From an uncultured Actinomycetota bacterium (GTDB taxonomy: Bacteria; Actinomycetota; Acidimicrobiia; Spongiisociales; UBA5794), in NCBI GenBank assembly GCA_963836085.1, contig CAWIHT010000014.1, positions 7,187-71,186 on the forward strand: a stretch of 64,000 nucleotides of DNA. Reading direction: 5' to 3'. The notes beneath the pieces were generated by a model, which was not told the origin of the DNA, ran no database searches, and saw nothing but the letters and a program-made list of their open reading frames with translations. The position numbers were made by a program, and so were the translations under genes. This document shows positions 10,819 to 15,830 of the stretch, in pieces (the stretch's first letter is position 1; each line of letters opens with the position of its first letter).

Positions 10819-11808
10819 TCAGGCGTGGTAGACCTGCCGGCCGGGAATGGCACCACGCACGCCACCGGCGGGATTGGGCACATCTCCCGCCCGTCGGGGA
10901 ATCAGGTGCGTATGCACGTGCCCGATGGTTTGCCCTGCAGCAACACCGTCGTTAACGCCGATGTTGAATCCCGCGACGGTCGGATCGATCACCTGAATCG
11001 AGGACCGGGCTGCCTGCACTAGCTGATCCACAGCAATCGCCTCTGGTCGGGTCAGGTCGAAGCTTGACGCTACGTGGCGTTTGGGGATTGCGAGCGTGTG
11101 CAGCGGCGTGACCGGGAACGCATCGCGGATGGCGAATGCCAAGCGATTCTCATCAACAACTCGCTCAGACACCTCAAAGCAGAATGCGCACCCCGCCTCT
11201 CGTTCCTCATAGACGGCATCAACCTTCCGGAAGTCGACGTCGTCTCGGTTGCCCTTGCTCTGATTGCACCGATAGCAAAGTGCCTGGAGATTATCGGTGT
11301 CATCGGGACCGCCGCGTGATCGCGGCATGATGTGATCGACCTCCAAGAATCGTTCGTCAGCTGGTACTCCGCACAACTCGCAGCGGAAGCGAGCGCTCTT
11401 CAGAACCTCATACCGTGCCGATCCGGGGATGTATCCTGATGTTCGGGCTCGGTGGCCCCATATCTCCTTGCCTCGCCGTTCGACGTAGTCGTCGAGGCGC
11501 GCCCTGCAGAGTTCCGTCAGATTGGCGAGCTGCTGGTCGTCCAGGTCAGCAAAGCCCCGCAAGACGTAGGAATCCCCGTCCTTGGCCACAACATTGTGCT
11601 TCCGAAGCACGCGGCCCGGCATCTGATTGACGATCCGCCGGTAGTAGTCGACTTGGCTTCGATCGTGCAAGACAAAGGCTGTGGCAATCTGCGCGACCGA
11701 CGCCGAGCCATTGCGTCGCAGAAGCTCCAGGAGCATCACCGGTTGATAGATGTGCGACATCCTCATTCGGTTTGCAACGAAGTCAGCTAGATCGTCGTAG
11801 TCCGCCAT
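10819..11808 (-). CDS. wHTH - HNH endonuclease - HIT hydrolase fusion protein
   Basis: Internal ATG at 11808 (MADYDDLADFV...). HNH: 'CELCG...VDHIMPRSRGGPDDTDNLQALCYRCNQSKGN'. HIT histidine triad: 'GHVHTHLIPRR'. The N-terminal 'SHIYQPVMLLELLRRNG...' resembles a winged-helix DNA-binding module. Confidence 0.8.
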   Translation of the reverse strand: MADYDDLADFVANRMRMSHIYQPVMLLELLRRNGSASVAQIATAFVLHDRSQVDYYRRIVNQMPGRVLRKHNVVAKDGDSYVLRGFADLDDQQLANLTELCRARLDDYVERRGKEIWGHRARTSGYIPGSARYEVLKSARFRCELCGVPADERFLEVDHIMPRSRGGPDDTDNLQALCYRCNQSKGNRDDVDFRKVDAVYEEREAGCAFCFEVSERVVDENRLAFAIRDAFPVTPLHTLAIPKRHVASSFDLTRPEAIAVDQLVQAARSSIQVIDPTVAGFNIGVNDGVAAGQTIGHVHTHLIPRRAGDVPNPAGGVRGAIPGRQVYHA

Positions 11809-12071
11809 CTCAGCGACAGTATCCCACCACGGACCCCAGGCTGTCGGCAGCCTTTGCTGGGTAGCTCTCGGCGGCAAGGCCGGTGACGGGTGCGTCGAGA
11901 GAGATGTCCCGGCGATCGTGGCACACTCGCTGATCTGAACGAGACGCCAAGACCCCTTCCTCATTCCGCCGTGAAGTACCTTGCAGCAGCGGCTCAGCAC
12001 CACCCGCAATCTCCACCTACGGTGACAGGGGGCCGAATCGTGCGGCCCGACCCACCGCAGCGCCCGATACG

Positions 12072-12785
12072 ATGCATCGCATGCAACCCGGCGACGTGAT
12101 CTCATACCTTGAAATGTGCACCAGAGAAGGGGCCTCGCTTCAGCGTGGAATGAACTTCCAGCTCGGTACCGATCACAGTGTGGTCCTGATGAGTGTTCGT
12201 CCTGGTGCCCCCTATCACGATGAGGTCATCGACGAGGGTCGAACGCTCATCTACGAGGGCCATGATGAACCGAGCTCGTCCCGCGTGCCAGATCCGAAGA
12301 TTGCCGATCAGCCACTCCGGACTCCGAACGGAACGCTCACGCAAAACGGCCGCTTCTATCGGGCAGCGGAGAGCTACCGGAATGGAAACAGTGCGGCCGA
12401 ACGAGTGCGCGTCTACGAGAAGGTCCGCCAGGGGATTTGGGTGTACGCGGGGCTCTTTCACCTTGTGGATGCCTGGCTTGAGGAGTCAAATGGACGGCGG
12501 GTGTGCAAGTTCAAGCTCTCGCTCGTCGAGGGCGCACTCGACATGGACCTTCCGGACGACGAGGGCCGTATCCAGGATCTCGCACACACTCGGGTCATCC
12601 CCACGCATGTGCGCCTAGCGGTTTGGGCCCGGGACCGGGGCCAATGTGTGGAATGCGCGGCAACGGAGAACCTGCATTTCGACCACATCATCCCATACTC
12701 CAAGGGTGGCTCGTCGCTCACCGCTGAGAACGTCCAGCTCCTGTGCGCCCGACACAATCTGGCGAAACGGGATCACATCGGGTAG
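12072..12785 (+). CDS. SRA/PUA-like modified-base-reader domain fused to HNH nuclease (putative type IV, modification-dependent restriction enzyme)
   Basis: The C-terminal HNH is 'CVECAATENLHFDHIIPYSKGGSSLTAENVQLLCARHNLAKRD'. The N-terminal ~160 aa has an SRA-like layout ('SVVLMSVRPGAPYHDEVIDEGRTLIYEGHD...DQPL...VRVYEKVRQGIWVYAGLFHLVDAW'). An alternative start lies at 12081. Confidence 0.7.
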   Translation: MHRMQPGDVISYLEMCTREGASLQRGMNFQLGTDHSVVLMSVRPGAPYHDEVIDEGRTLIYEGHDEPSSSRVPDPKIADQPLRTPNGTLTQNGRFYRAAESYRNGNSAAERVRVYEKVRQGIWVYAGLFHLVDAWLEESNGRRVCKFKLSLVEGALDMDLPDDEGRIQDLAHTRVIPTHVRLAVWARDRGQCVECAATENLHFDHIIPYSKGGSSLTAENVQLLCARHNLAKRDHIG

Positions 12786-12889
12786 ACGCCAGATCTAGGT
12801 CGCCGCCGAGTTGCGCGACGCTCGCGCAGCGGGCCGAGACAGTGTCTGGGAGTGCCAGCGCAACTGGCGGTCGAACTCCCCGTGTCCGT

Positions 12890-13399
12890 CTACGACTCGC
12901 ACCCAATTCCGTCCTTGTCCCCATCGAAGCGATGCGGGTCCGGGGGAAGGACCGTGAACCGCTTTCGACTGATGTCGCCACAGTTCAAGTCCGGCGGTGA
13001 CGGCGGAATGCAGAAGTCCGGATACGACGGGTGACAGTTCTGCTGGACTGTGGTGGTGGTCGTGGGAGCCGCAGTAGTTGTGGTTGTAGGCGGTGTCGTC
13101 GTCGTGGTTGTCGGAGGAATCGTGGTTGTGGTCGTTTGAGCAACAGTGGTGGTCGTTACTGGGGCAGTGGTGGTCGTCACTGGGGCAGCAGTTGTCGTGG
13201 TAGTCGGAGCAGAGGTCGTTGATGCCGGTTCGGACGAAGTCGTCGCAATCGGCACGGCGGCGGCAACCGGCGCTGGCTCGACGGCTCCCGATCCGCTTTC
13301 GCCGATGAGACCCCCCGCCACACTGAGTGCGACAACCCCTCCAGCGACGCCCATCGCAGACTTCTGCCAGACGCTTCGATTGCCCCACCAGGTGGACAT
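12890..13399 (-). CDS. membrane-anchored protein with Thr-rich linker and C-terminal Excalibur calcium-binding domain
   Basis: N-terminal TM 'AMGVAGGVVALSVAGGLI', a long T/P tract, and a C-terminal 'DPHRFDGDKDGIGCES' matching the Excalibur DxDxDGxxCE signature. Confidence 0.75.
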   Translation of the reverse strand: MSTWWGNRSVWQKSAMGVAGGVVALSVAGGLIGESGSGAVEPAPVAAAVPIATTSSEPASTTSAPTTTTTAAPVTTTTAPVTTTTVAQTTTTTIPPTTTTTTPPTTTTTAAPTTTTTVQQNCHPSYPDFCIPPSPPDLNCGDISRKRFTVLPPDPHRFDGDKDGIGCES

Positions 13400-13881
13400 C
13401 AGATCTCGCCTGCGAACGATCGGTTCAGGTGCGGTTCCATTGATGTGCTATCGGCATCAAGGAGGCAGATAGTGAGGTCATCGCTGAGAATGCCGGTATG
13501 ACCTGGACCAATCGACAGCGAGAGACCGGTCGCTACCGCTTCTCGGCACTCCCCCGCACCTCGTTCTGCTGGGTACCGAGCGGCGTTCTCCTCGAACTTG
13601 GCCCAGAAGGCGTCGTTCAAGTCGATCTCGAGAAGGTCGGCAATACGCACGACGTACTGCAGGATGTCGACGAGTTCCTCGCCGACATGCTGGAGCACCT
13701 GCCCGTCGACGTCTCCCGACTCGCCTGGAGTCAGCCATTGGAAGATCTCGAGCAATTCGCCCACCTCGCCGGCGAGCGCCATCGAGAGGTTCTTCGGGGT
13801 GTGAAACTGCTCCCAGTCGCGTTCGGCGGCGAAGACTCGTAGGTGTTCAGCCACCTTGTTCAGATCCAACGGCTCGGTCAC
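13399..13881 (-). CDS. MazG-like all-alpha NTP pyrophosphohydrolase (dCTP pyrophosphatase-1-like)
   Basis: 'FHTPKNLSMALAGEVGELLEIFQW...VGEELVDILQYVVRIADLLEIDL...NAARYP'. The GTG start overlaps the DUF2075 stop (GTGA, 13878-13881). The last ~45 aa look unnatural. Removing one base from the C5 run at 13550-13554 gives '...YPAERGAGSAEKR*' ending at 13532, the usual family length. Confidence 0.8.
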   Translation of the reverse strand: MTEPLDLNKVAEHLRVFAAERDWEQFHTPKNLSMALAGEVGELLEIFQWLTPGESGDVDGQVLQHVGEELVDILQYVVRIADLLEIDLNDAFWAKFEENAARYPAERGAGECREAVATGLSLSIGPGHTGILSDDLTICLLDADSTSMEPHLNRSFAGEI

Positions 13882-15830
13882 GCCTCCACCTCCTCCGCTA
13901 CCCCGGCTCCCTGTTCTGCCGCCGCCGCGTCCGCGAACATACTGCGACGCACCGCTTGGAAGTCGACCCTCGACTCGAAGAACTTCCGGGTCGGCTCATC
14001 TTCGAAGTAGATGTAGCAGCCCTTCATACCTCGGGTCAGGAGAACCCGATATGTCTGCTTGACAAGTTCCGTGAATCGGTCGTCGTCCTTCTCTCGCTTG
14101 ACCATGCTGTCCTTCGAGAACTCTCGCTGCCCGATCCAGCCCTCGCGGCCTCGATGCACGAGGTCCCTGCCGAAGATGACGCCTACGTAGTCGACTTCGA
14201 ATCCCTGGGCTGTGTAGACACAGCCCACTTGATCCAGACCTCCGGGTTCCGAGACCCAGAAGTCTGACTTCGGAATGCCCTTCGCGAGGCCCGTAGCACC
14301 GGACTTGGCGTTCCACGGCATCGACCAATCTGGCAACTGAACGTCATGTACGAGTGTGCCGTCGTCATTGGGGACTGACCACGGCCAGCAGAAGCCGGCG
14401 ACCAACCGCGCGGACTGGCCCGTCGCGGCCTTCTGGTTGATCAGCGCCTGGAGTTCCCCAGGCGAATCGACAATGTCGAAATCGAAGGCGGCGTCACCCT
14501 CCCACAGAACGCTCGTAGTCCGGCGAAGGTCCAGCGTGTTGTCGACCCAGGAGACGAATCCGTCGGACCCTCCGCATCGGAACTGAATGTCGAGCTCGTA
14601 CTCCAAGAGCTCCGCACCCATCTTGGCTGCGTGGGACTTGATGAGATCCTTGCTCCCAACCTCGCCCGGCCGCACGACCTGGAGATCGTCAATGAAGAAC
14701 ACCGCCACCTTCGCAGTGTCGATCAGTTCCTCGATCTGGGGGCGGGTGGACCGGTTCGCCTTCTTGGTGAACCGATTGTTGCTGGACTCGCGTATCCGGT
14801 GAGCTTCGTCGCAGATCAATACGTCGAGGGTGTTCGGGTCGGCCGTGGCGTAGGTGTTGAAGTAGTTGAATTGGGCGGAGGCTTGCTTCCCGACCTTCTT
14901 GCGGATGTTCGAGGTGAAGGCTCTCGATCCCGTTGCATGCTGCGTGCTGTATCCGTTGGCGGATAGCTCTGCGACGAGGTTCAAGGCGATGACCGACTTC
15001 CCTGTGCCGGGCCCTCCGTCGACAATGAACACCGAGTTGCCAGCCTTCTGGTGTTGCTCGGCAACCTTGGCGATGACCGTGTTGAACACCACCTTCTGTT
15101 CATCGAGCAGGACGTACGTCGGTTCGCCCTTGATCATCTGTGCGGTGTGGTCGAGGAGCTTCTTCGAGGGGTGGTACTTGCCGGCCAGGATGCGGTCCAG
15201 CACCGGCACCCCGTTGCCACCTCCGAGCCGCTCGTCCAGGTGGGTCGCCAGTGACGAGATCTGGTCTCCGGTGAAGACGGGATAGACCTGCAGCAAATCG
15301 GCGTGACGTGGAGCGAACACCTCATCGTCGTCATCCCGGACCATGTTGTGCAGGAAGCTGCACGCCTGCAATCCGACCTCGTCCTCGGAGAACGTGCTGT
15401 GGGTGTCCTTCAGGTAGCGGTGATAGCCACCGACCTGCGCGGACGGATGGAGAACTTCACGCTTGCGTCCTCCAACGAACGTCAGCACACACTCCTCGGC
15501 CGTCGACGGCGACGACTCACTCCACTGCTTGAGTTCAACGATGACGGCGTTCGATCTGCCTTCTGGGGTCGTACCCGAGATGAGAACGTCGAGCCGGCGC
15601 GAGGCAAGCGGCAACTGCCACTCGACGACGACGCCGTGATCGTTGAGCCCGGCGAGTTGCACGGCATCAGCCATTGCCCGCAGCGAGTTGCGCCACGACG
15701 CCACCTCGCTCTTCGGCGCCTCGTACCGAAATGCCTGGACGAACGATGCGGAGACCTTGTCAGCGATCAGGTTCTGCGTGGCGTCGGAGACAAACTCGGT
15801 GGATGTGCCGGTGTAGAGATGCATCGGCAT
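13878..15830 (-). CDS. DUF2075-family (Schlafen-helicase-like) ATPase with N-terminal PD-(D/E)xK-like nuclease module
   Basis: 'RRLDVLISG...AVIVELKQW' is a nuclease-like D...ExK motif. Walker A is 'VDGGPGTGKS' and Walker B 'VLICDEAHR'. C-terminal 'YTAQGFEVDYVGVIFG...TYRVLLTRGMKGCYIYF' is typical of DUF2075. Confidence 0.85.
   Translation of the reverse strand: MPMHLYTGTSTEFVSDATQNLIADKVSASFVQAFRYEAPKSEVASWRNSLRAMADAVQLAGLNDHGVVVEWQLPLASRRLDVLISGTTPEGRSNAVIVELKQWSESSPSTAEECVLTFVGGRKREVLHPSAQVGGYHRYLKDTHSTFSEDEVGLQACSFLHNMVRDDDDEVFAPRHADLLQVYPVFTGDQISSLATHLDERLGGGNGVPVLDRILAGKYHPSKKLLDHTAQMIKGEPTYVLLDEQKVVFNTVIAKVAEQHQKAGNSVFIVDGGPGTGKSVIALNLVAELSANGYSTQHATGSRAFTSNIRKKVGKQASAQFNYFNTYATADPNTLDVLICDEAHRIRESSNNRFTKKANRSTRPQIEELIDTAKVAVFFIDDLQVVRPGEVGSKDLIKSHAAKMGAELLEYELDIQFRCGGSDGFVSWVDNTLDLRRTTSVLWEGDAAFDFDIVDSPGELQALINQKAATGQSARLVAGFCWPWSVPNDDGTLVHDVQLPDWSMPWNAKSGATGLAKGIPKSDFWVSEPGGLDQVGCVYTAQGFEVDYVGVIFGRDLVHRGREGWIGQREFSKDSMVKREKDDDRFTELVKQTYRVLLTRGMKGCYIYFEDEPTRKFFESRVDFQAVRRSMFADAAAAEQGAGVAEEVEA

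Follow-up and report, generated by a model that had tools for sequence, protein, structure and literature searches.

Two probably independent restriction-type nucleases in one bacterial defence island, one of them an HNH nuclease fused to a Fhit-type HIT domain

In this work we have analysed two HNH nuclease genes, P0001 and P0002, that lie back to back in a 64,000-nucleotide stretch of DNA (the window) from an uncultured Actinomycetota bacterium. The explanation that we favour, with a probability of roughly 70% for the whole of it, including the proposed mechanisms, is that each of the two genes was acquired horizontally and encodes a restriction-type nuclease that works as a single gene, independently of the other, and that they are adjacent only because both have landed in the same defence island. 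P0001 would be directed to DNA by an N-terminal winged-helix-like domain and would cut with its HNH domain, with a Fhit-type HIT domain, whose catalytic residues appear intact from the sequence, as the obligate functional partner of the nuclease. By analogy with known SRA-HNH enzymes, P0002 would flip 5-methyl- or 5-hydroxymethyl-cytosine into a Tyr/Asp/Tyr pocket of its SRA domain, and its HNH domains would then nick or cut close by. Both proteins have conserved architectures and conserved catalytic residues, and both genes behave as solitary, mobile units.

P0001 (10819..11808, reverse strand) encodes a solitary fusion of 329 amino acids, with winged-helix-like, HNH and HIT domains in that order, as defined by the open reading frame and its translation, Pfam and an alignment of 42 sequences. 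The frame stays open upstream to position 12105, and the ATG at 11808 is the start in 41/41 homologues. The translation contains SHIYQPVMLLELLRRNG, VDHIMPRSRGG...NLQALCYRCNQSKGN and GHVHTHLIPRR. P0002 (12072..12785, forward strand) encodes an SRA-HNH protein of 237 amino acids, a type IV-like restriction endonuclease by Pfam, AF2 and Foldseek. The two genes diverge from a spacer of 263 nt (11809..12071). These coordinates, the divergent orientation and the shared region are as described in an earlier note on this DNA, and Pfam bears out each of its domain calls, i.e. HNH and HIT in P0001 and SRA and HNH in P0002. Outside the pair, the island also carries a MazG-like gene with a DUF2075/Schlafen-helicase gene (13399..15830, reverse strand; Pfam) and TcmP-DUF5131. 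The GC content dips mildly across the island (0.59-0.62 versus 0.63-0.67), which is not decisive.

The earlier note had gone further and proposed that the divergent genes form one co-regulated restriction module, a reading in which the two nucleases would cooperate from a shared control region. The arrangement invites this reading, as the genes are divergent across only 263 nt and both proteins are HNH nucleases with a reader-type N-terminal domain. However, the pair is absent elsewhere. No SRA gene lies within 6 kb of an HNH-HIT gene in any of 80 genomic loci, no HNH-HIT gene (N-domain or HIT) is found at any of 82 SRA-HNH loci, 33 of which are informative, and none of 40 related genomes carries both genes; among these the fusion occurs in none and the SRA-HNH gene alone in one. 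The closest SRA-HNH relative (locus L082, 80% identity) has kept the MazG-DUF2075 pair but lacks the HNH-HIT gene. Scans of the spacer for a sigma-70-like promoter or terminator found none, although these were centred on sigma-70 and are weak at 61% GC, and, apart from a palindrome of 10 nt at the start codon of P0002, no operator-like repeat was found. Because the genes are never together elsewhere, which the earlier note had itself named as evidence against its proposal, and no shared operator or promoter was detected, we give a single module hardly any weight. A type II restriction-modification system, which calls for an adjacent cognate methyltransferase, was rejected for both genes, as no methyltransferase family recurs beside the relatives of either and none is present between 9 and 19 kb of the window.

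The nature of P0002 is the more straightforward of the two. Pfam places a SAD_SRA domain at residues 35-152 (E 2.8e-9) and an HNH domain at residues 192-232 (PF01844, E 8e-8). With the help of alignments to the SUVH5 and SUVH9 SRA domains and of invariant columns, we extend these to residues 8-152 for the SRA domain (12093..12527) and 178-234 for the HNH core (12603..12773), which has the pattern CxxC...DH...N...CxxH-N. The AF2 model has a pLDDT of 83, and its predicted SRA fold matches that of SUVH5 in Foldseek (E 1.5e-7, TM 0.66-0.69) as well as ScoMcrA, MspJI and UHRF1, in agreement with the earlier suggestion that this domain is a modified-base reader. Q24, Y48, D50 and Y61, at the thumb and pocket positions, are invariant in 42 sequences of the P0002 family, and in the HNH domain so are C192, C195, D204, H205, N220, C225, H228 and N229. 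The putative pocket residues align with the GGYxD...IYTG motif of SUVH5, an equivalence drawn from alignment and not from a complex structure. In TagI the pocket is Tyr55/Asp58/Tyr67 and the thumb is Gln35 (PMC6212794).

Much of this recalls the known SRA-HNH type IV enzymes ScoA3IV/Sco5333, TagI, TbiR51I and MsiJI (PMC6212794, PMC6765204). P0002 shares with them the domain order, the size class, the SRA fold, the Tyr/Asp/Tyr pocket, the thumb Gln and the Zn-finger HNH, as well as the lack of a cognate methyltransferase and a host without a C5 methyltransferase. PF00145 has no hits in the host's own genome, while 9/14 control genomes are positive, and the host's own DNA would be spared because the host has no such enzyme. 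It differs from TagI in having no detectable sequence match to it, as neither phmmer nor a profile search connects TagI with the P0002 clade, a separate and very large group of proteins of ~229 amino acids. The nearest SRA sequences to P0002 in the PDB are those of plant SUVH proteins. By its sequence and predicted structure, P0002 is an additional member of the known type IV SRA-HNH class, of the ScoA3IV/TagI kind.

No conserved neighbour is found among the 82 loci of the P0002 family. It could be proposed that P0002 is instead tied functionally to the MazG-like/DUF2075 pair, as a loose set directed against modified cytosine that hydrolyses modified dCTP and cuts DNA with modified C. L082 has the same layout, with identities of 80% for SRA-HNH, 79% for MazG and 91% for DUF2075, as does L160, and L164 and L121 have parts of it. 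That said, this amounts to only ~4/33 informative SRA-HNH loci, an unrelated Excalibur-like gene intervenes in the window, and in L081 the partner of the SRA-HNH gene is a ScoMcrA_N protein. HNH-HIT genes, too, are flanked by DUF2075, which may therefore be simply a common resident of such islands. We consider this link unlikely.

The P0001 protein is less conventional. Its HNH core (residues 143-188, 11245..11382; PF01844, E 1.3e-15) has the pattern CxxC...DH...N...CxxC...N, and is followed by a HIT domain that Pfam places at residues 212-307 (PF01230, E 1.4e-17) and that we extend to residues 205-327 (10828..11196) from PDB sequence matches and Foldseek. The HxHxH motif is intact. Among 42 aligned homologues, with a mean column identity of 70%, the triad H297/H299/H301, Q293 and the catalytic and Zn-binding residues of the HNH domain are all invariant. 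The C-terminus carries the HxHxHxx triad on a HIT fold, as expected for the Fhit branch of the HIT superfamily, its PDB sequence matches are HIT, Fhit and Ap4A phosphorylase proteins, and its Foldseek matches are Rv2613c, Fhit and 3o0m (E about 1e-7 to 1e-6). Towards the C-terminus of the domain, the tail P-x-GGVR-x-x-IP is conserved.

The earlier note called this fusion unusual. It is certainly uncharacterised, as there is no dedicated HNH-HIT model in Pfam, NCBIfam or PADLOC, our literature searches found no report of an HNH-HIT or HIT-HNH protein, and papers on wH fusions and on the reappraisal of Dnd do not mention a HIT fusion. It is not rare, however. There are more than 5,589 homologues at 55-73% identity, the protein clusters of the family number over 5,000, and the fusion occurs in the genomes of 508 species from many phyla, including one archaeon and one CPR bacterium, with 50-60% identity retained across phyla. 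The HNH-HIT fusion is thus a large uncharacterised family and not a rarity. Some variation is seen within it, e.g. P0384 has an intact N-domain and HIT but no HNH, and is the one HNH-less example inspected, while the variants P0386 and P0392 have a decayed HIT triad. Strictly speaking, then, the family requires neither of its two catalytic domains.

The genomic surroundings of the family bear on whether it acts in defence. No neighbour gene is conserved and no methyltransferase recurs at HNH-HIT loci, among whose flanking genes are HNH_2, DUF2075, resolvases and NERD. A different reading is that P0001 is a selfish homing-type HNH element, or an enzyme of DNA repair or nucleotide housekeeping. 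At many loci the gene does stand by itself amid housekeeping genes and no further defence gene adjoins it, its high conservation and patchy distribution resemble those of selfish elements, serine recombinases are close by in 12/80 loci, and the same HIT subfamily also occurs solo in non-defence contexts, the host's own genome included. However, the gene does not lie within introns or inteins and does not interrupt conserved target genes, and it is present as a single copy in its genome. Viral contigs rarely carry the type (some 14 full-length copies among 2.9 million), and no full-length fusion was found in the phage and plasmid collections searched. The genes that recur beside it, moreover, encode type IV-like nucleases, DUF2075, McrB-like proteins and NERD. 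The fusion is accessory and not housekeeping, because it is missing from 40/40 relatives. We regard a non-defence role as very unlikely, and a role in defence as the probable one.

The N-terminal domain of P0001 (residues 1-125, 11434..11808) was described in the earlier note as winged-helix-like. The AF2 secondary structure, a predicted helix-helix-strand-helix-helix-helix-hairpin, agrees with this description and is the sole basis for the name, which we therefore keep as winged-helix-like. In the alignment the motif M-S-H-x-Y-Q-P is invariant, and a long predicted helix (91-120) comes after it. A profile of the domain has no significant match among PDB sequences, a Pfam scan of 19 members with E values up to 10 returned only noise and scattered HTH hits, and the top 50 Foldseek matches of full-length P0001 are all to the HIT domain. 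The domain is found in ~1,141 representative clusters, nearly all with the same N-domain/HNH/HIT architecture.

Comparison with known systems suggests what this domain may do. Like the wH-HNH type IV enzymes of the SruGXI/HhiV4I kind, P0001 has a winged-helix-like module before its HNH domain and is solitary, without a methyltransferase. Those enzymes have a sensor of the DpnI-type winged-helix class, 224-283 amino acids, or 375-496 with a PUA domain, and no HIT; the P0001 N-domain matches no known wH model. The assignment of P0001 as a two-domain wH-HNH or a three-domain PUA-wH-HNH enzyme was rejected on account of the extra C-terminal HIT domain, which is present family-wide. The paper on these enzymes reasons that a wH-nuclease which acts alone has to recognise a modification, as it would otherwise be toxic to its own host. 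By analogy, the same logic would apply to P0001, and the lack of a cognate methyltransferase makes foreign DNA that bears some mark the most probable target.

ScoMcrA and the SBD-HNH proteins (PMC6224610, PMC7461809) also combine a wHTH-class reader with HNH, as P0001 is predicted to do. The His, Tyr and Pro of the N-domain motif recall the residues of their sulfur cavity, although these are contiguous in P0001 and about 48 residues apart in SBD. We have rejected a sulfur-binding domain, as there is no SBD or ScoMcrA Pfam hit at E values up to 10 and the profile does not match the 5ZMM or 5ZMO chains. A phosphorothioate link was discarded on the same lack of an SBD match and because DndC is found in 0/50 genomes that host HNH-HIT, which, given the low baseline, indicates no dependence on Dnd but is not a significant depletion.

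Evidence that the two catalytic domains belong together comes from relatives in which these are encoded separately. Plasmid HIT genes that are 43-50% identical to the HIT domain of P0001 directly adjoin a gene for an HNH protein of ~350 amino acids in 4/4 loci, in both gene orders, and the same adjacency holds in 4/4 sampled chromosomal or metagenomic loci. Examples of these split operons include Polaromonas pPNAP03, Aromatoleum EbN1 plasmid 2 and Rhodoferax ferrireducens T118. Like P0001, they combine HNH with the same HIT subfamily, C-terminal tail included, in defence-type surroundings, with neighbours such as McrBC, UvrD and HerA. They differ in having two genes and an HNH protein whose N-terminus is not homologous to the P0001 N-domain; a weak BLAST match (E 8e-4) had made such homology a candidate, which was rejected at an hhalign probability of only 0.3%, and the alignment is confined to the HNH cores. 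Some of the loci carry an extra ScoMcrA_N and NOV_C gene, and the split operons are also uncharacterised. HIT and HNH are therefore linked recurrently, in fused form as well as in operons, and because the HIT relatives adjoin an unrelated HNH protein in 8/8 loci we infer that the two are functionally coupled.

What might the HIT domain contribute to this partnership? P0001 resembles the Fhit-branch hydrolases and the Ap4A phosphorylase Rv2613c in fold and in the HxHxHxxPRR-GD motif, and is unlike these in that its HIT domain has a covalent link to a DNA nuclease and to a domain of the DNA-binding type, and bears the extra tail. Our preferred guess, which is tentative, is that the domain is a nucleotide-binding and nucleotide-hydrolysing dimeric switch that pairs two HNH domains and licenses cutting.

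Aprataxin, a DNA 5'-AMP hydrolase that combines HIT with a zinc finger, offers another model. Here the HIT domain would serve as a second effector, whose targets are nucleotides linked to the DNA at the nick made by HNH; it might remove ligase-added 5'-AMP and so block resealing, or nucleotidylate the end. The invariant catalytic triad fits this idea. The fusion of HIT with HNH, or their translational coupling in both gene orders, points to a 1:1 complex that acts on a single substrate. P0001 also has a HIT tethered to a DNA-binding module, and the HNH-less P0384 mimics the aprataxin layout, although this is one inspected example. However, the HIT domain belongs to a different branch, nearest to Fhit and the Ap4A phosphorylases, and there is no FHA domain. 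An aprataxin-type deadenylase was rejected, as the sequence ends 22 residues past the triad motif and has no C2H2 zinc finger. We find this effector role doubtful, and favour the dimeric switch.

PADLOC matches P0001 to ThsC, through the HIT domain only (E 2.7e-9), and the PADLOC paper mentions HIT only as ThsC in Thoeris II. ThsC is a HIT accessory whose gene accompanies those of ThsA (SIR2/SLOG) and ThsB (TIR). An identity as type II Thoeris ThsC was rejected, as neither TIR nor ThsA is among the 25 commonest flanking families of HNH-HIT loci. A broader possibility is that the coupling, fused and split, is a new restriction or defence mechanism, in which HIT strips ligase-made 5'-AMP so that nicks stay unsealed, nucleotidylates ends, or gates the nuclease via an infection-induced dinucleotide such as Ap4A, and in which the M-S-H-x-Y-Q-P domain is an undescribed reader of a DNA mark. 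We would put this forward only as an outside chance.

In summary, there is nothing unusual about the pair as such: two single-gene nucleases, unrelated to each other, share one defence island, and P0002 contributes just one more member to a known enzyme class. The interest lies in the partnership between a nuclease and a HIT protein, which is found in thousands of proteins, in many bacterial phyla and in at least one archaeon. To our knowledge, no role alongside a restriction nuclease has been established for HIT enzymes. Once worked out, the role of HIT could show a novel means by which DNA cleavage is controlled or reinforced, and the N-terminal domain of P0001 could yield a new modification-reading domain that would be useful in epigenetic mapping.

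The P0001 gene, an ORF encoding the 329-aa fusion of a winged-helix-like domain, an HNH nuclease and a HIT domain, lies at 10819-11808 on the minus strand. The P0002 gene, an ORF for the 237-aa SRA-HNH protein, lies at 12072-12785 on the plus strand, leaving a spacer of 263 nt. The earlier note placed both genes correctly, and all of the motifs that it quoted are found in the two proteins. Pfam assigns HNH to residues 143-188 (E 1.3e-15) and HIT to residues 212-307 (E 1.4e-17) of P0001, and SAD_SRA to residues 35-152 (E 2.8e-9) and HNH to residues 192-232 (E 8e-8) of P0002. Upstream of its true start, the minus-strand frame of P0001 continues for 99 codons without a stop, to 12105, and overlaps the first part of P0002; the ATG at 11808 matches the start position in 41 of 41 homologues. 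The publicly available version of the protein, P0003 (313 aa), begins at an internal methionine, M17, and has lost conserved N-terminal residues.

The pair had been proposed to form one co-regulated restriction module, with co-conservation set beforehand as the refuting test. We examined this from both sides, using top-scoring, non-random sets of 80 HNH-HIT and 82 SRA-HNH loci. None of the 80 HNH-HIT loci carries an SRA-domain gene in flanks of up to 6 kb, and the only cross-matches are to the HNH motif of the HNH-HIT gene itself. Likewise, the N-domain and HIT domain of P0001 are found in none of the 82 loci of P0002 relatives, 33 of which extend at least 2.5 kb beyond the gene on one side. 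There is no HNH-HIT gene upstream of the closest relative of P0002 (locus L082, 80% identity), and among 40 genomes from the same genus, family or order the SRA-HNH gene occurs alone in one and the fusion in none. Because the genes are not conserved together elsewhere, the two-gene module is refuted at the level of sequence comparison. Simple scans of the 263-nt spacer found no promoter-, terminator- or operator-like feature.

P0002 is an ordinary gene, a further member of the known class of SRA-HNH type IV enzymes. The SRA-type N-domain claimed for it is borne out by Pfam and by an AlphaFold model (42 homologues as input, pLDDT 83), which Foldseek matches to the SRA domain of SUVH5 (E 1.5e-7, TM 0.66-0.69) and further to those of ScoMcrA, MspJI and UHRF1. 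In the modification-dependent enzyme TagI, the flipped-base pocket is lined by two tyrosines and an aspartate, with a thumb glutamine (PMC6212794). The counterparts of these residues in P0002 (Q24, Y48, D50 and Y61) do not vary among 42 sequences and line up with the SUVH5 motif; the HNH core and zinc ligands are intact. Members of this family are about 229 aa long and very numerous, nearly all of 8,000 scored candidates being significant. TagI was not matched by P0002 in sequence or profile searches, and the family forms a sequence clade of its own. Published SRA-HNH relatives restrict Dcm-modified plasmids and the hmC phage T4gt (PMC6765204). A C5 cytosine methyltransferase is absent from the host genome (92.6% complete), while the same search matches 9 of 14 control genomes; this is consistent with a putative attack of P0002 on 5mC or 5hmC DNA.

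We found no obligate partner and no methyltransferase for either gene in the 80 HNH-HIT or 82 SRA-HNH loci. The sole recurrent neighbour of the SRA-HNH gene is a MazG-like/DUF2075 helicase pair (L082 and L160, partly L164 and L121). The block of three genes spans 12072-15830 in the window, 6001-9083 in L082, where the downstream genes are as in the window (79% identity for MazG-like, 91% for DUF2075), and 3229-6681 in L160, where the gene order is different. This suggests a loose anti-modified-cytosine association, in which a dCTP-type pyrophosphatase accompanies a cutter of modified-C DNA. In the window, the SRA-HNH and MazG-like genes are separated by a gene (12890-13399, minus strand) for a small secreted protein that is rich in Thr and Pro and has an Excalibur-like C-terminal region (DKDGIGCES). 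The otherwise syntenic L082 lacks this gene, which seems to have been inserted here. The MazG-like ORF (13399-13881, minus strand) encodes 160 aa with an odd C-terminal tail, and its L082 homologue stops after 115 aa (...ARYTADEVRGSAEKR); close to its 3' end the window gene seems to carry a frameshift or an error of assembly. The SRA-HNH gene has alternative partners in other islands, as at L081 (4617-6693), where a copy with 76% identity to P0002 begins 2 nt downstream of a gene for a 460-aa protein with a ScoMcrA_N domain; this copy also adjoins a Cas1 gene. The window island continues with TcmP and DUF5131, which match the PADLOC candidates PDC-M30 and PDC-M41.

P0001 belongs to a large uncharacterised family. 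The fusion of HIT to a nuclease had been called unusual; it is indeed uncharacterised, but a word-indexed search returns more than 5,589 significant homologues and one-genome-per-species data hold 508 matches (48-57% identity to the query). The best 120 matches are about 327 aa long, 55-73% identical and of a single architecture. Hosts include Proteobacteria, Bacteroidota, Planctomycetota, Acidobacteriota, Verrucomicrobiota, Thermoleophilia, SAR11, SAR86, a Peregrinibacteria (CPR) genome and a Nitrososphaerales archaeon. This high conservation with a patchy distribution points to horizontal transfer; in its own genome P0001 is single-copy. No full-length HNH-HIT gene was found in the phage and plasmid collections, and 2.9 million viral contigs hold about 14 full-length copies, often at contig ends; these may represent cargo at prophage edges or host flank with misplaced boundaries. 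Those on the IMG/VR contigs L184, L189, L192, L193 and L195-L197 lie mostly within a few kb of a contig end. NCBIfam has no model for P0001, the only PADLOC matches are those of its HIT domain to ThsC and generic ones of its HNH domain, and our literature search found no paper mentioning the fusion.

Neighbourhood clustering of all ORFs in the 80 HNH-HIT loci, with crude longest-ORF gene calls, gives a serine recombinase as top recurrent neighbour (12 loci), followed by a PUA/EVE-like HNH protein and a DUF2075/Schlafen-type helicase (five each) and a McrB-like GTPase (four). The Pfam families of 124 immediate flanking proteins are HNH_2 (6), SLFN-g3 helicase (4), resolvase (4), recombinase (3) and NERD (2), the remainder being unrelated housekeeping singletons.

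Within P0001, the HNH pattern CxxC...DH...N...CxxC...N is fully conserved, and the histidine triad reported as complete (H297/H299/H301) is invariant across the family. By sequence and fold the HIT domain is nearest to Fhit, the mycobacterial Ap4A phosphorylase Rv2613c and a Mycobacterium smegmatis HIT protein; its motif GQTxxHxHxHxIPRRxGD is of Fhit type and is followed by a conserved tail, P-x-GGVR-x-x-IP-x-x-x-x-Y. The N-domain (residues 1-125) has an invariant M-S-H-x-Y-Q-P motif. Its predicted helices, short strand, helices, beta-hairpin and long helix make the suggested winged helix a reasonable, tentative model. Neither Pfam nor a search of PDB sequences gave a significant match to this domain, whether the query was the single sequence or a profile. 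An exhaustive search with this domain only gave about 1,141 representative clusters, and the ten scanned all show the same architecture, fragments thereof or decayed forms.

The family includes variants. P0384 (L179 4001-4777), an intact gene on an 825-kb contig, keeps the N-domain and an intact HIT without HNH, and no recognisable HNH gene adjoins it. Three tandem DUF1428 genes precede it and three unannotated opposite-strand genes follow. In P0297 the HNH is replaced by a low-complexity linker, while P0386 and P0392 keep the N-domain and HNH with a decayed HIT triad. This HIT subfamily also stands alone outside defence settings, for example between a RecQ-like helicase and a glycosyltransferase in the same genome. 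In Streptomyces phage phiSASD1 (gp3-gp4, L168 3081-4408) a HIT gene directly follows a PAPS-reductase-like gene of the AANH superfamily; the HIT protein belongs to the subfamily of the P0001 HIT (41% identity, C-terminal tail included), and the two may work together on nucleotides or in DNA modification.

Of the new findings, the coupling of HIT and HNH is the most useful. Stand-alone plasmid HIT proteins with 43-50% identity to the P0001 HIT, unusual tail included, are encoded directly beside a ~340-aa HNH gene in four plasmids. HIT precedes HNH in Polaromonas pPNAP03 and, with overlapping stop and start codons, in Aromatoleum EbN1 plasmid 2. The order is reversed in a Hymenobacter plasmid (3 nt gap), beside a restriction endonuclease, an NTP pyrophosphohydrolase and a helicase, and in a Persicobacter plasmid, where the genes abut. 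All four HNH partners belong to a single family with about 1,700 members, for which NCBIfam likewise has no model. Four more members were sampled on long contigs, and each has a HIT gene 2-43 nt upstream; McrBC, UvrD and HerA are among the neighbours there. Adjacency thus holds in 8 of 8 loci, with either gene first, a small sample of the family. Two of the four long-contig loci carry an overlapping upstream gene for a ScoMcrA_N + NOV_C protein, giving an operon of three genes whose stop and start codons overlap (ScoMcrA_N + NOV_C, HIT, ~355-aa HNH; L180 917-3559 and L182 989-3583). It occurs in Rhodoferax ferrireducens T118 and on a metagenome contig, adjoins McrBC in L182 and appears to be an uncatalogued defence-type cassette.

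Homology between the N-terminal region of these split HNH proteins and the P0001 N-domain was rejected (hhalign probability 0.3%); only the HNH cores align (probability ~70%). The partnership thus recurs with at least two unrelated front ends, which is a classic signature of a functional link, and the gene arrangements argue that HNH and HIT are functionally coupled.

What is established for P0001 is the architecture, the conservation of its catalytic residues, its solitary and mobile behaviour with no accompanying methyltransferase, and the coupling of HIT to HNH. The protein would act in defence as a restriction-type nuclease, with the N-domain recognising some feature of foreign DNA, because a solitary nuclease without a protecting methyltransferase would otherwise be toxic, as argued for wH-nuclease fusions (PMC11037411). 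In its working P0001 would most resemble the reader-HNH type IV enzymes (wH-HNH, SBD-HNH); it differs from them in that its N-domain, the position of their defining reader, matches no known wH or sulfur-binding model in sequence searches, and in having an extra conserved catalytic domain, HIT. Dependence on resident Dnd phosphorothioation is unlikely, since DndC is found in none of 50 host genomes; nor was any resemblance to the sulfur-binding domain detected in the N-domain.

For the role of HIT we rank first, at roughly one chance in three, a dimeric switch that binds and hydrolyses nucleotides, that would pair two HNH domains and license cutting. HIT proteins are obligate dimers. TagI dimerises via its HNH domains (PMC6212794). 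Such a switch would also account for retention of HIT where the triad has decayed. The variant with N-domain and HIT and no nuclease favours a co-effector of aprataxin type that would process nucleotide-linked DNA ends at the nick; we place this second and consider it doubtful. Hydrolysis of a free nucleotide or signal comes third and seems rather unlikely. With the module refuted and P0002 ordinary, the locus is of moderate interest, and its main value is an HNH-HIT partnership that is real, widespread, unexplained and easily testable.
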